DNA from: Escherichia coli
GTDB lineage: Bacteria; Pseudomonadota; Gammaproteobacteria; Enterobacterales; Enterobacteriaceae
Length of the DNA: 64,000 nucleotides
Reading direction: 5' to 3' (one strand)
NCBI RefSeq assembly: GCF_030013205.1
Contig: NZ_CP122648.1
Under the pieces are notes generated by a model, which did no database searches, was not told the DNA's origin, and was given only the letters and a program-made list of their open reading frames with translations. Shown one piece after another: positions 17,695 through 23,820 of the stretch. The translations under genes were made by a program, and so were the position numbers. Every line of letters begins with the position of its first letter. The stretch's first letter is position 1.

Positions 17695-18507
17695 ATGATC
17701 ATTACACGAGCAGACCTGCGAGAATGGCGTATCGGAGCGGTGATGTATCGCTGGTTCCTGCGCCATTTCCCACGCGGCGGTAGTTATGCCGATATTCATC
17801 ATGCACTGATTGAGGAAGGATATACGGACTGGGCGGAGAGTCTGGTTGAGTATGCGTGGAAAAAATGGCTGGCGGATGAAAACTTCGCGCATCAGGAAGT
17901 TTCCTCTATGCAAAAATTGGCCACAGATCCCGGAGAGAGAGCATTTTGTAGTCAGTTTGCCCGCAGCGACGATCATGCTCGCATCGGCTGTTGTGACGAT
18001 AACGCCAGAATCGCAACCGCTGGGTATGCTGCACAAATTGCCAGTATGGGTTATAGCGTGCGGATTGGAAGTGTCGGCTTTAACAGTCACATTGGCAGCT
18101 CCGGTGAGCGTGCACGGGTTGCTGTAACCGGCAATTCTTCGCGGATAAGCAGCGCTGGAGATAGTAGTCGGATTGCGAATACCGGAATGCGAGTACGCGT
18201 TTGTACATTGGGTGAACGGTGTCATGTCGCCAGTAATGGTGACCTGGTGCAAATCGCCAGCTTTGGCGCAAACGCCAGAATTGCCAACAGCGGCGACAAT
18301 GTATACATCATTGCCAGCGGTGAAGATTCAACAGTAGTGAGCACGGGCGTGGTCGACTCAATTATTCTCGGGCCAGGGGGAAGCGCCGCACTGGCATATC
18401 ATGACGGCGAAAGAGTTCGCTTCGCCGTCGCCATTGAAGGTGAAAACAATATTCGAGCCGGAGTCCGCTATCGCCTTAATGAACAGCATCAGTTTGTTGA
18501 GTGCTGA
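17695..18507 (+). CDS. ydhT: uncharacterised protein YdhT with internal degenerate short repeats
   Basis: 270 aa; repeats of the type ARIA/SRIS/VRIG with about 13-aa spacing in the central region. Confidence 0.85.
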   Translation: MIITRADLREWRIGAVMYRWFLRHFPRGGSYADIHHALIEEGYTDWAESLVEYAWKKWLADENFAHQEVSSMQKLATDPGERAFCSQFARSDDHARIGCCDDNARIATAGYAAQIASMGYSVRIGSVGFNSHIGSSGERARVAVTGNSSRISSAGDSSRIANTGMRVRVCTLGERCHVASNGDLVQIASFGANARIANSGDNVYIIASGEDSTVVSTGVVDSIILGPGGSAALAYHDGERVRFAVAIEGENNIRAGVRYRLNEQHQFVEC

Positions 18508-18512
18508 TAGCT

Positions 18513-20123
18513 TTACATTTGATTAAACGAAAGACGCTGACGAGCACGGGATGCAGGCTTTACGACCGCCTGAGCCATCGCCTCACCAATTTCTGCACAT
18601 GCCGTAAGTCCCTGTACGAATGGCTGGTCGTGCATCAACCAGGGCAACGCGCCGAACGCTACGCGCCCACGAATTTCTTCGGGTTGCTGTAGCGTATAAT
18701 CTTCGCCAACATCAGGGATTTCATCCCCTGTTTTCTGTAATTGTTCGCGTAGTCCAGGGAAAGGAATATCTTTCACTTTAAGCGGACGCTGCCCGCGGGC
18801 ATCAATAAAAACGTCAAACGAGTAGCTGTTGTCTTCCGTTTTCAGGACGGTGCGCGACTCATTAATTTCCATTTCGTAGTCTTCACCGAGGGCGAGAATA
18901 TGAATGATTCCCGCTTCACGTAAGGCCAGCAGCCGACGAATAGACTCTGAAGGGATTGCCGCATAATTATCGATGAAAACCCGGGCAAGGCTTTTACTGA
19001 ACCGTTTATGGTCGAGTTCATTCAGATGAGGAACAATTTCCTGTACGGCTTCATGCAGGCGCAGAATGACATAACGCCAGGGAACAGTATGTTTTTCTCG
19101 TTTATTGCGTTCGACTTCCTGGAGATTTTTTTCTGCCCAGTCGAACGGGTCGCGTTGTTTGCGCTCGGCAAACCAGGCTTGAGCAAAGGAATCGACATTC
19201 AGGCTTTCTAAGGCTATGCGTTGGCTCCAGTCTGGATCAGCAAATTTGATTTCCTCTACTATCAATCTAAATACCCGATCCAAAAGGCCCTCTTCGCCTT
19301 TTTGAATCTCAGCATTTAATGCTTGATCAGTGACGATGTGTAAGGGCTCGTAGGGAATAGGGCAATAGAAATCGGCTTCGGGTAGAATACCTGTGCGCGA
19401 CATTAACGTAATATTTAGCTTTTCACTTGCGTTATCGCGGTGAAAAATGACGTGTTGTTTATCATCTTCAATGAACGAACCATGCTGAATAGCCACTGCC
19501 ATTGCCGCATCTAGTCCGCTCAAGGATGTTCCCATAATACCCACGTTACACGCATCGACCTTTGCTTCCATCAGGCCTGACCACGGGCTGGGAAAATACG
19601 TTCTGGTTGCTTCTTCTTCATCAGGCCAGACGTGACCCGTCGCGATCACTGCTAAATCAAACGTCTCGCTGGGTAAATCCTGATTTGTAGCGAGCATGAC
19701 GCCAGCATTTATAATTTGCAGATCGGTAACCTGGCATGATTCATAAACAGCCACTGCAAATTTTTGCTGTCGTGCCTGGTCTACTAATCGTAAAAATTGA
19801 TCGCGGAAATATTCGCCCAGCAGAATTCGCGGTAAAAACTGACGATCGTGCAAGGTTTCTTTTTTAACGCCATAACGCTGGAGATGGCTGGCTTCTTGCT
19901 TTTGTAGCCATTCGAGATACGTACAATAAATCGGCGGTATTTCAATACTGGCAATATTTGCCAGCATCATTTTTGAGTTTTCCTCATCACTGTATGGCAT
20001 CCCGACACCGGCTTCATCAGCCTGCTCGAAGATAGAAATAGAAAGTGGAGTTTGTTGCTGTAGAAGCGAGAATAAGGTGTAGATCCCCGTAGGCCCGGCA
20101 CCCACAATAGCAATTTTTTTCAT
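18513..20123 (-). CDS. ydhS: FAD/NAD(P)-binding protein YdhS
   Basis: 536 aa; N-terminal Rossmann motif IAIVGAGPTG. Confidence 0.88.
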   Translation of the reverse strand: MKKIAIVGAGPTGIYTLFSLLQQQTPLSISIFEQADEAGVGMPYSDEENSKMMLANIASIEIPPIYCTYLEWLQKQEASHLQRYGVKKETLHDRQFLPRILLGEYFRDQFLRLVDQARQQKFAVAVYESCQVTDLQIINAGVMLATNQDLPSETFDLAVIATGHVWPDEEEATRTYFPSPWSGLMEAKVDACNVGIMGTSLSGLDAAMAVAIQHGSFIEDDKQHVIFHRDNASEKLNITLMSRTGILPEADFYCPIPYEPLHIVTDQALNAEIQKGEEGLLDRVFRLIVEEIKFADPDWSQRIALESLNVDSFAQAWFAERKQRDPFDWAEKNLQEVERNKREKHTVPWRYVILRLHEAVQEIVPHLNELDHKRFSKSLARVFIDNYAAIPSESIRRLLALREAGIIHILALGEDYEMEINESRTVLKTEDNSYSFDVFIDARGQRPLKVKDIPFPGLREQLQKTGDEIPDVGEDYTLQQPEEIRGRVAFGALPWLMHDQPFVQGLTACAEIGEAMAQAVVKPASRARQRLSFNQM

Positions 20124-20248: not shown

Positions 20249-20554
20249 TCAGGCGAGTTTTGCCTGACTGATTTGACTAAGTGGCTCATTGACATCGAAA
20301 ACTTTGGCGACAACTTCCTCAACGCCGAGATTTTTCAGTCGGGCAGTATGTTTTTCCAGATAGGCAAGGGCGTTTTTTTCATCAGTAAAAAGGTAGATCC
20401 CACCGGCTTCGTGGTTCTTTTCACTTTCTGTCCATACCTTCCACAGAAAACCAGGTTCCTGATTAATCGACTCAGCAAGCGGTTTAAGCTGCTCAGCCAT
20501 TGCGTCGCCAAATGGGCCATTGAAAGAAAAATGAAGTTGTAACAAAGTTGCCAT
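20249..20554 (-). CDS. ydhR: putative monooxygenase YdhR (Dabb-type)
   Basis: 101-aa ORF recognised as YdhR. Confidence 0.85.
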
Positions 20555-20662
20555 AGCGATTCTCCTTCTGATAACGCATACGAAGACAGTGTAAATCTTT
20601 TAACGTATTGGATACAGAGAAGAAACAGAGGGAAAAAAGGAGAAGACCAGATTAAGAAAATC

Positions 20663-20739
20663 TGGTGCGTCCGAGTGGACTCGAACCACCGACCCCCACC
20701 ATGTCAAGGTGGTGCTCTAACCAACTGAGCTACGGACGC
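20663..20739 (-). tRNA. valW: tRNA-Val (anticodon GAC), valW-type
   Basis: Reverse complement reads GCGTCCGTAGCTCAGTTGGTTAGAGCACCACCTTGACATGGTGGGGGTCGGTGGTTCGAGTCCACTCGGACGCACCA with encoded CCA. Confidence 0.95.
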
Positions 20740-20743
20740 AGGA

Positions 20744-20820
20744 TGGTGCGTTCAATTGGACTCGAACCAACGACCCCCACCATGTCAAGGTGGTGCTCTA
20801 ACCAACTGAGCTATGAACGC
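20744..20820 (-). tRNA. valV: tRNA-Val (anticodon GAC), valV-type
   Basis: Reverse complement reads GCGTTCATAGCTCAGTTGGTTAGAGCACCACCTTGACATGGTGGGGGTCGTTGGTTCGAGTCCAATTGAACGCACCA; 4-nt spacer to valW. Confidence 0.95.
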
Positions 20821-21128
20821 AACGTTGTAGGTGACAACGGGGACGAATATTAGCGGCAGAGTGGGAAGGTGGCAAGAGGCAAAACGTAATTTTCTGCGCT
20901 ATTTCGACCGTTTGCAGAGCTTTTAAGCAAATTGGCTATATTTTGTTGATTTGCAAGGGCGATTTTTATTCAGGATCGCATTTACATCTGACACAACCCA
21001 ATAATCTGTGTATCAGAGTTTAAACAGAGTTGTTTGCCACCATCTCAAAATCTGTCGTGGATAAATCCTCCGTAGCCTTTACACTTAGGTAGCAATAAAG
21101 GCACACAGATGCAGCAAAGGAATAAATC

Positions 21129-22385
21129 ATGGGATCTGATGCGAAAAACTTGATGAGCGACGGGAACGTGCAAATTGTTAAGACCGGCGAGGTCATTGGC
21201 GCGACGCAACTTACTGAAGGTGAGTTAATTGTTGAAGCTGGCGCAAGAGCCGAAAATACCGTGGTCACGGGGGCTGGCTGGTTGAAAGTGGCAACCGGTG
21301 GGATCGCCAAATGTACACAGTACGGCAACAATGGCACGCTATCGGTCAGTGACGGTGCCATTGCCACAGATATTGTTCAGTCAGAGGGAGGCGCAATTAG
21401 TCTCTCTACGCTCGCTACGGTTAATGGCCGCCATCCCGAAGGTGAATTTAGCGTTGATCAGGGTTATGCCTGCGGTTTGTTGCTGGAAAATGGCGGTAAC
21501 CTGCGTGTACTGGAAGGCCATCGCGCGGAAAAAATCATTCTCGATCAAGAGGGCGGCCTGTTGGTCAATGGGACAACCTCAGCGGTCGTGGTAGATGAAG
21601 GTGGTGAATTGTTGGTGTATCCAGGTGGGGAAGCCAGCAATTGTGAGATTAATCAGGGCGGCGTTTTTATGCTGGCCGGGAAAGCCAGTGATACGTTGCT
21701 TGCTGGTGGTACCATGAATAATCTCGGTGGTGAAGACTCTGACACTATTGTTGAGAATGGAGCCATTTATCGTCTGGGGACGGATGGCCTTCAGCTCTAT
21801 AGTTCCGGTAAGACGCAAAACCTGTCCGTTAATGTGGGTGGTCGGGCTGAAGTGCATGCCGGTACGCTGGAAAACGCGGTAATACAAGGTGGGACAGTGA
21901 TCTTGTTGTCACCCACCAGCGCGGACGAAAATTTTGTCGTAGAGGAAGATCGCGCACCGGTTGAACTGACCGGGAGTGTTGCATTACTGGACGGCGCTTC
22001 AATGATTATTGGCTATGGCGCAGATCTGCAACAATCAACGATTACTGTACAGCAGGGCGGTGTGTTGATTCTCGACGGCAGTACGGTAAAAGGTGACAGT
22101 GTCACTTTCAGTGTTGGTAACATCAATCTGAATGGCGGAAAACTGTGGCTGATCACTGATGCGGCAACGCAGGTGCATCTGAAAGTGAAACGCCTGCGTG
22201 GAGAGGGAGCGATTTGCCTGCAAACCAGTGCGAAAGAAATTTCACCTGACTTCATCAATGTGAAAGGGGAAGTTACTGGTGATATACACGTTGAGATAAC
22301 AGATGCCAGTCGGCAAACTCTGTGTAACGCACTGAAACTACAGCCAGACGAAGACGGGATTGGCGCAACGCTCCAGCCTGCGTAA
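21129..22385 (+). CDS. ydhQ: autotransporter-passenger-like repeat protein YdhQ (no beta-barrel translocator or obvious signal peptide)
   Basis: 418 aa; Gly-rich beta-helix-type repeats with about 19-20 aa period. Confidence 0.85.
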   Translation: MGSDAKNLMSDGNVQIVKTGEVIGATQLTEGELIVEAGARAENTVVTGAGWLKVATGGIAKCTQYGNNGTLSVSDGAIATDIVQSEGGAISLSTLATVNGRHPEGEFSVDQGYACGLLLENGGNLRVLEGHRAEKIILDQEGGLLVNGTTSAVVVDEGGELLVYPGGEASNCEINQGGVFMLAGKASDTLLAGGTMNNLGGEDSDTIVENGAIYRLGTDGLQLYSSGKTQNLSVNVGGRAEVHAGTLENAVIQGGTVILLSPTSADENFVVEEDRAPVELTGSVALLDGASMIIGYGADLQQSTITVQQGGVLILDGSTVKGDSVTFSVGNINLNGGKLWLITDAATQVHLKVKRLRGEGAICLQTSAKEISPDFINVKGEVTGDIHVEITDASRQTLCNALKLQPDEDGIGATLQPA

Positions 22386-22425
22386 AAACACAGGCGCAAC
22401 CCGTGAAGGTTGCGCCTTGTCTTTA

Positions 22426-23820
<1,395 letters not shown>

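Follow-up and report, generated by a model that had tools for sequence, protein, structure and literature searches.

The closest known relatives of the protein considered here are the alpha-domain of Ag43 (Flu), AIDA-I and TibA, in which repeats of the PF16168/TIGR04415 family form a right-handed beta-helix that is followed by a pertactin-type autochaperone. The Escherichia coli gene ydhQ, found at positions 21129–22385 (+) of a 64,000-nucleotide stretch of contig NZ_CP122648.1 (all of which is hereafter referred to as the window), encodes a protein that has this repeat family and beta-helix in common with them, carries repeats and autochaperone in the same order and is likewise acidic, at an identity of about 20–38% to their passengers. 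Unlike Ag43, AIDA-I and TibA, YdhQ has no signal peptide or ESPR, no linker and no 12-stranded barrel, and its autochaperone stops ~43 positions short of the end; the whole protein measures only 418 aa, was cytosolic in the sole localisation test, and is a reported target of both sigma32 and CsrA. Classical type Va autotransporters (e.g., pertactin) also possess a homologous module of passenger and autochaperone, but YdhQ is without their leader and translocator.

A further comparison is provided by degraded autotransporter fragments of E. coli (the P0053 cluster), which are likewise passenger-only, with AIDA and pertactin matches and neither leader nor barrel. These fragments differ in length from strain to strain (150 to 1165 aa) and have frameshifted tails, whereas the length of YdhQ is almost constant and its gene is under purifying selection. 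The window protein is a full-length member of the YdhQ family itself (NF007409, PRK09945), to which the name “leaderless autotransporter YdhQ” has been given (PMC13101318). While the gene, its “AIDA repeat-containing” annotation and the absence of a leader are already on record, the analysis presented here leads us to conclude that YdhQ is probably a cytoplasmic protein that derives from an autotransporter passenger and is maintained by selection, and that it is not an autotransporter.

Architecture and fold of YdhQ

The ydhQ coding sequence (418 codons plus stop) begins with ATG, is preceded by a Shine-Dalgarno motif AGGA 8–11 nt before the start (21118–21121), and has an unremarkable GC content of 51.4%. 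In matching E. coli genomes the RefSeq annotation reads “ydhQ: AIDA repeat-containing protein”. The product is acidic, with an isoelectric point (pI) of 4.4 and a net charge of −28. The original prediction, made from the letters of the window alone, had described YdhQ as built from passenger repeats of the AIDA-I/Ag43 type, and this description is confirmed by Pfam, by NCBIfam and by matches in the PDB at the level of both sequence and fold. Glycine makes up 14.8% of residues, weak peaks of self-similarity occur at lags of ~17–19, 27, 36 and 54 aa, and the ~19-aa strand-loop-strand repeat feature of the AIDA type is present. The proposed hidden Markov model search against autotransporter families gives significant similarity to passengers, with the Pfam AIDA profile (PF16168) matching four stretches of the protein (E 4e-29), and no match to a translocator.

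Several parts of the protein can be distinguished. Its first 12 residues, MGSDAKNLMSDG (21129–21164, +), are hydrophilic, predicted to be disordered and highly conserved. An AIDA-repeat beta-helix covers residues ~7–260 (21147–21908, +) and is followed by an acidic loop, SPTSADENFVVEEDRAP, at residues 261–277 (21909–21959, +), which like the first 12 residues is predicted to be disordered yet is nearly invariant across the genus. A truncated pertactin-type autochaperone segment (22113–22337, +; Pfam Pertactin, PF03212) lies at residues 329–403, where the match spans only positions 1–78 of the 121 in the profile. The passenger part is present, the autochaperone is cut to about two thirds, and the protein ends 15 residues past the pertactin match, still within sequence that is homologous to passengers.

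Among NCBIfam models, the YdhQ equivalog PRK09945 (NF007409) scores 938.3 bits against a cut-off of 830 and is matched over positions 1–418 of 418. The matches to auto_Ag43 (85.7 bits, cut-off 1200) and auto_AIDA-I (54.5 bits, cut-off 1200) are partial and fail as equivalogs, and the BafA model also gives a partial match that is far under its cut-off. The TIGR04415 “O_hepto_targRPT” repeats are detected at 42.6 bits, above their cut-off of 30. PHROG matches of YdhQ are unannotated AIDA-like proteins, and PADLOC returns no match for YdhQ, which leaves a role in a defence system unsupported.

An AlphaFold2 model calculated from an alignment of 20 sequences predicts a beta-helix throughout YdhQ with a mean predicted local distance difference test (pLDDT) of 91 and a predicted template modelling score of 0.88. 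Only residues 1–6 and a loop at about 263–275 are of low confidence, with residues 263–268 and 270–275 falling below a pLDDT of 50. The top Foldseek matches in the PDB are the Ag43 passengers (7KOH, 7KO9, 7KOB, 4KH3) and TibA (4Q1Q), followed by pertactin, and a sequence search of the PDB agrees with the fold in returning Ag43 (7KO9, 7KOH, 4KH3, 7KOB) and TibA (4Q1Q). Descent of YdhQ from a passenger of the AIDA-I/Ag43 type is supported by these results.

Alignment to a related autotransporter (P0082) indicates which piece of such a protein YdhQ corresponds to. Residues 77–490 of this relative align with residues 7–396 of YdhQ and are succeeded by a complete pertactin domain and a barrel; therefore YdhQ is equivalent to the central part of a small autotransporter of the AIDA type. 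By this alignment YdhQ is without a leader and without about 70 residues at the start of the mature protein, and at its other end the final third of the autochaperone is missing together with linker and barrel. We also looked for a wider family of conserved YdhQ-like proteins without leader or barrel outside Escherichia, and none is seen in an exhaustive HMMER search of 1.84 billion representatives, in which YdhQ forms a single full-length cluster and all else consists of large autotransporters of at most 38% identity or short sequences that appear to be fragments (two word-indexed homolog searches were too shallow to bear on this question). Cysteine content was considered as a marker of cytosolic residence. 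With 5 Cys, YdhQ has 1.2% cysteine compared to a median of 0.48% in homologous passengers, which is within their range and hence only weak evidence.

Absence of export modules

The original prediction that YdhQ has no signal peptide holds up at the level of hydropathy, of the upstream stop codon and of published prediction. The maximum 10-residue hydropathy (KD10) in the first 70 aa is 1.19, compared to ~2.6 in two relatives that bear signal peptides. Inspection of the acidic N-terminus finds no RR motif for twin-arginine translocation (Tat) and no lipobox, and SignalP 6.0 predicts no signal peptide in YdhQ (PMC13101318). A hidden leader or a longer open reading frame (ORF) was ruled out, since an in-frame TAA stands two codons 5' of the ATG, no longer ORF is possible at this position, and the 308 bp on the 5' side contain no autotransporter-like translation.

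The C-terminal translocator is missing as well, in line with what had been read from the ORF. Pfam finds no autotransporter beta-domain (PF03797) and no ESPR in YdhQ, and the 40 bp from the ydhQ stop to the mdtK stop are occupied by a bidirectional terminator hairpin (22392–22417, unstranded) common to these two convergent genes. A search of the flanking DNA for a degraded beta-domain had been suggested, and we carried it out by tblastn over the whole window with eight related autotransporter sequences, several of them partial and three with a full-length PF03797 barrel match. Matches occur inside the ORF only (21132–22340). With no match better than E = 0.05 outside ydhQ in the 64 kb, a degraded barrel in the flanking DNA is ruled out.

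Because the leader and the translocator, two of the three defining modules, are absent, YdhQ cannot autotransport, and in this it resembles none of the characterised autotransporters. The suggestion of another export route found no evidence in its favour: there is no leader, no gene that was annotated or examined in the surrounding ~6 kb is a secretion gene, and the leaderless protein is cytosolic.

Conservation and selection

By megablast ydhQ is present in 5425 of 5426 complete E. coli genomes, with at least 80% coverage in 5424. Among 60 spread-sampled records of E. coli, the gene is gapless and full-length in 59. The exception is strain AR_0013 (L086, 753–3670), where ydhQ is split by an insertion of ISEcp1, an element that mobilises many bla(CTX-M) genes; at least one clinical strain can thus dispense with the gene. 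Each of the orthologs from E. ruysiae, Escherichia sp. E4742, E. marmotae and E. albertii has a length of exactly 418 aa, at 90–80% identity, and no indels are found across the sampled Escherichia species at a synonymous divergence (dS) of about 0.8–1.1. A more distant ortholog of 419 aa and 71% identity, with the same upstream sequence on the valV side, occurs in an unassigned Logan read set (SRR31578456; L003, 320–1579), which implies that a deeper Escherichia-like lineage already had the truncated gene.

The ratio of nonsynonymous to synonymous substitution rates (dN/dS, Nei-Gojobori) of ydhQ is 0.104 relative to E. albertii (bootstrap 95% confidence interval 0.072–0.145), 0.126 relative to E. 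marmotae (0.091–0.171), and 0.09 relative to the K-12-type allele (7 nonsynonymous and 24 synonymous differences). In neutral simulations, which comprised substitutions only, the ORF stays open in 3 of 5000 runs at a divergence d of 0.3 and in 0 of 5000 at d of at least 0.5, a range that includes the observed dS. YdhQ is not a decaying pseudogene, because its dN/dS is 0.09–0.13, its length hardly varies and neutral simulations close the ORF. Of the suggestion that YdhQ may be the remnant of an autotransporter, descent from a passenger stands, and the reading as a gene in decay does not, with 418 aa retained in five Escherichia species at a dN/dS of 0.10–0.13.

Conservation is highest in the N-terminal repeats (codons 61–180, dN 0.02–0.07) and lowest at the autochaperone-like end, where dN is about 0.17–0.18. 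Surface adhesins usually show the opposite gradient.

The window carries a rare allele of ydhQ, which is at least 99% identical to the gene in 19 of the 5425 genomes and 95–99% (about 97.5%) identical to the others; the encoded protein is 97% identical to that of the common E. coli allele. Relative to the K-12-type allele there are seven residue changes: G39A, K111Q, S212A, E299D, I328S, H348Q and Q350H. Among the best matches listed, the genomes with at least 99% identity are mostly porcine enterotoxigenic E. coli (ETEC) or O139:H1, and the 14.1 kb around ydhQ are the same as in the chromosome of porcine strain K_EC180 except for one 1-bp indel. This indel probably falls within ydhS (18513–20123, −), a position we infer from the annotations, and would reflect either a difference between strains or an error in sequencing: ydhS is an intact ORF of 536 aa in the window and is annotated as a frameshifted pseudogene in the K_EC180 RefSeq record.

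Insertion history of the locus

As had been noted from the letters alone, ydhQ adjoins valV-valW, a pair of tRNA-Val(GAC) genes at 20663–20739 and 20744–20820 (−) that is divergent from ydhQ and ends 308 bp upstream of it; on the other flank lies the convergent mdtK. The gene is located on the promoter (5') side of valV and not at a tRNA 3' end, and because of this location a classic integrase-mediated insertion of an island at a tRNA is not indicated. The order ydhR, two tRNA-Val genes, ydhQ, mdtK, ribE is retained in E. albertii and E. marmotae.

To follow the junction beyond the genus, MdtK was used to fetch 80 loci (L005–L084), one genome per species. The tRNA-Val genes start ~155 bp past the mdtK stop in more than 40 Enterobacteriaceae (Salmonella arizonae, Citrobacter amalonaticus, Enterobacter, Leclercia, Kosakonia and others) and about 1.6 kb past it in E. 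coli and E. albertii. Homology across genera stops at about 20895–20919 on the valV promoter side, up to which the promoter region of valV-valW is conserved, and at 22424–22427 on the mdtK end. From these limits it follows that a segment of ~1.5 kb at ~20920–22424 (unstranded), containing the promoter region, ORF and terminator of ydhQ, is specific to Escherichia; it is absent from the compared loci of Salmonella, Citrobacter, Enterobacter, Leclercia, Kosakonia and Shimwellia.

In some genera the junction of mdtK and tRNA-Val (from position ~8369 of the fetched loci onward) holds unrelated cargo of 0.7–4.3 kb (porin-like, LysR, TetR/SDR and small membrane proteins), and the tRNA-Val array itself has 2 or 3 copies across the surveyed Enterobacteriaceae. 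The junction is a variable spot across this family. We also considered decay in situ from a full-length autotransporter that relatives have kept at the same site. No such gene was found, at least 40 other Enterobacteriaceae having either the ~155 bp or unrelated cargo at this position.

Separately, two Kosakonia loci (L044, L058) and Enterobacter sp. Bisph1 (L063) carry giant AIDA-repeat genes just beyond the tRNA-Val pair, at positions ~10.2–15.2 kb of these loci, on the strand that ydhQ occupies relative to mdtK and only ~27–31% identical to YdhQ. Their position near tRNA-Val may be a coincidence or may reflect a tendency of such genes to land by this locus.

Two other features of the neighbourhood were recorded. 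The Rfam family RF02194 (“HPnc0260”, a Helicobacter antisense RNA) matches 20538–20701 (+) with 112 bits against a gathering score of 59, over the 5' end of ydhR and the ydhR-valW spacer and antisense to a tRNA-Val gene; the match probably reflects the antisense-tRNA content of the family and not a real small RNA. The product of ydhT (17695–18507, +; 270 aa) has a C-terminal half made of ~9–10-residue repeats (…ARIxSxG…/…RIANxG…), a pattern that suggests a second small repeat protein resembling a beta-solenoid, encoded where the ydhYVWXUT oxidoreductase cluster ends.

Regulatory sequence and expression

The region from about −75 to +35 of ydhQ is nearly invariant in four lineages, including the synonymous positions of codons 1–5. 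Upstream of it, a candidate sigma32-type promoter, TTTAAA-N13-CACCATCT, is located at 21019–21045 (+) and is the single match in the window to a scan for TTGAAA-N13-CCCCATNT with at most 2 mismatches; the sigma32 consensus with a 14-nt spacer has no match upstream of ydhQ. The candidate has 2 mismatches to the consensus; E. marmotae conserves it in part, and E. albertii has a weaker version. Published data place ydhQ among 38 sigma32 targets found by chromatin immunoprecipitation on microarrays (ChIP-chip) and other methods, and the gene was re-detected as a target after heat shock with a log2 value of 1.4 at K-12 position 1744259 (PMC2996942, Table 2 for the 38 targets). After conversion between coordinate versions, this position lies ~107 bp upstream of the ydhQ ATG and coincides with the candidate at 21019–21045. 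A microarray study groups ydhQ with the y-genes ycjX, yciS and yhdN, whose membership in the sigma32 regulon is given in PMC2996942. A weak sigma70-like candidate, TGGATA-N16-TACACT (21058–21085, +), was read by eye and is under the scan threshold; in four Escherichia lineages its −10 element TACACT is invariant and its −35 element varies at one position in two of them.

RNAalifold predicts a hairpin in the 5' untranslated region (UTR) at 21104–21141 (+), with the stem CACAGAU/AUCUGAUG, that encloses the Shine-Dalgarno AGGA and the AUG-GGA. The hairpin has no covariation support, its stem being largely conserved with two pairs broken in the most divergent ortholog. The 5' UTR of ydhQ is a direct target of CsrA by reporter assay and by trimolecular fluorescence complementation (TriFC) (PMC5389547), and the GGA motifs in the predicted hairpin, one within the Shine-Dalgarno (21118–21121) and one at 21132–21134, fit this published binding. 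In addition, FlhDC gives a peak in the ydhQ-valV intergenic region in SELEX (systematic evolution of ligands by exponential enrichment).

At the protein level, the literature reports that YdhQ is quantified in whole-cell proteomes and is down 5.5-fold with vanillin (PMC6561319), that it copurified with EF-Tu (PMC2672614), and that pFAST-YdhQ, when no leader is attached, retains its fluorescence in the cytosol (PMC13101318, a toolkit paper from 2026). Work on the dynamics of RNA-protein interactions in E. coli found YdhQ crosslinked to RNA by UV light and classed it as RNA-binding, as one of 17 unannotated proteins (bioRxiv 10.1101/2023.07.03.547468). Of the possibilities originally raised for YdhQ, an intracellular role fits best with these reports, that is with the sigma32 ChIP data, the CsrA targeting, the crosslinking to RNA and the copurification with EF-Tu.

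Discussion

A cytoplasmic, selected and passenger-derived YdhQ would have arisen as follows. The product of ydhQ would be a stand-alone, soluble right-handed beta-helix that came from a type Va passenger of the AIDA-I/Ag43 type and whose signal peptide, autochaperone end, linker and beta-barrel were presumably lost before the genus Escherichia diversified. It may have been acquired or trimmed in the Escherichia ancestor and then kept under purifying selection. Transcription would proceed from its own promoter region, as a published sigma32 target, and translation would be controlled through the conserved 5' UTR with its GGA motifs, as a published direct target of CsrA. YdhQ would then remain intracellular, most likely as a stress-regulated binding scaffold that acts through the conserved face of the N-terminal repeats and the acidic loop, and published data point to RNA or translation-associated proteins as possible partners. 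We infer this specific function, as a scaffold or with RNA or translation partners, only tentatively. The present analysis itself shows the architecture and fold, the missing export parts, the conservation and selection, and the history of the insertion; expression, cytosolic location and the links to sigma32, CsrA, RNA and EF-Tu come from published work. A stronger version would make this exapted passenger a heat-shock-induced (sigma32) and CsrA-gated cytoplasmic factor whose partners would be RNA or the translation machinery (EF-Tu), for instance by mimicking nucleic acid with its acidic beta-solenoid or by serving as a template for folding or aggregation; we regard this as speculative and rather unlikely as it stands.

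Several observations weigh against a cytoplasmic, selected role and are gathered here. EF-Tu is a frequent contaminant in copurification, and an acidic protein (pI 4.4 for YdhQ) is an unusual RNA binder. The match to the sigma32 motif is not significant alone, with 1 found compared to 1.8 expected by chance. The dN/dS of ydhQ is 5–8 times higher than that of its housekeeping neighbours (0.01–0.03 for mdtK, ribE and cfa, with ydhR at 0.07–0.10), and a study with site models reported positively selected sites in ydhQ. The Keio deletion of ydhQ is routinely used as a neutral control, with no deletion phenotype or biochemical function on record, and the COG of YdhQ appears in lists of extracellular-vesicle proteomes. 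Finally, fusion of YdhQ to an exogenous signal peptide gave more extracellular reporter activity (agarase, pFAST), and the protein was termed an autotransporter (PMC13101318). That paper does not remark on the missing barrel of YdhQ, and a term search of its text for proteinase K, trypsin, outer-membrane fractionation and leakage controls turned up none of them. We treat its claim of display as unexplained and not as evidence of autotransport.

A first alternative is that ydhQ is a functionless relic, a transcribed and translated autotransporter fragment that persists by inertia or by hitchhiking beside essential tRNA genes. In its favour are the use of the deletion as a neutral control with no known phenotype, the truncated autochaperone, an evolution faster than that of the neighbours, and the tolerance of occasional disruption by an insertion sequence (ISEcp1 in AR_0013). 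The confidence intervals around a dN/dS of 0.10–0.13 are, however, far below 1, cross-species indels are absent at a dS of about 0.8–1.1 where 0 of 5000 neutral simulations keep the ORF open, and the promoter and 5' UTR are conserved. Real autotransporter remnants of E. coli vary in length, as in the P0053 cluster (150 to 1165 aa), and we consider it unlikely that ydhQ is one more of them. It also seems improbable to us that YdhQ is a surface or secreted adhesin that leaves the cell by a non-classical route, be it release by lysis or in vesicles, export through the flagellar or another leaderless pathway, or use in trans of the barrel of another autotransporter, of the beta-barrel assembly machinery (BAM) or of the translocation and assembly module (TAM). 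The gene has repeatedly been listed as an adhesin or biofilm gene on grounds of homology, since YdhQ is homologous to self-associating adhesins, and Roux 2005 is described by citing papers as having placed it among Ag43 homologues as a candidate adhesin. The external agarase and pFAST activity obtained with the exogenous signal peptide (PMC13101318), the vesicle proteomes, the FlhDC peak between ydhQ and valV and the reported positive selection point in the same direction. Set against these are the absence of signal peptide, Tat motif, lipobox and barrel, the absence of a secretion gene among those annotated or examined nearby, the cytosolic location of leaderless YdhQ in the very paper whose text yields none of the control terms searched for, and the fit of both RNA crosslinking and the sigma32 regulon to the cytoplasm, while the conserved N-terminal repeats argue against diversification driven by immunity.

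A third explanation, that YdhQ is a cytoplasmic substrate or sink for O-heptosyltransferases of the AIDA type (Aah/TibC family) or modulates paralogous passengers before their export, seems very improbable. It draws on the TIGR04415 score above the cut-off, on the presence of TibC-glycosylated TibA (4Q1Q) among the closest folds, and on the porcine ETEC/O139 strains that are closest to the window. Enzymes of the Aah/TibC family work in the cytoplasm, and the porcine ETEC/O139 background is one in which AIDA-I and aah often occur. No transferase gene lies near ydhQ, though, and ydhQ is universally conserved although to our knowledge most E. coli, K-12 included, lack aah and tibC.

We therefore return to an exapted passenger, now a cytoplasmic protein, as the preferred explanation, in which a genus-specific insertion, a strict length with a dN/dS of about 0.1, and the published sigma32, CsrA and RNA-crosslinking data are assembled and converge on a cytoplasmic role. 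The gene, which belongs to those “y-genes” of E. coli that still await characterisation, has been widely copied into lists of adhesin, virulence and biofilm genes, and caution is advisable for annotations and studies that take its product for an adhesin at the surface, use it as an anchor for display or regard the locus as neutral and harmless. YdhQ offers a clean example of a secretion-system domain retained for another use, one that is probably intracellular and linked to stress through sigma32 and CsrA. If the more specific proposal of a heat-shock-induced, CsrA-gated factor were true, YdhQ would be the first passenger domain of a secretion system with a dedicated intracellular job.

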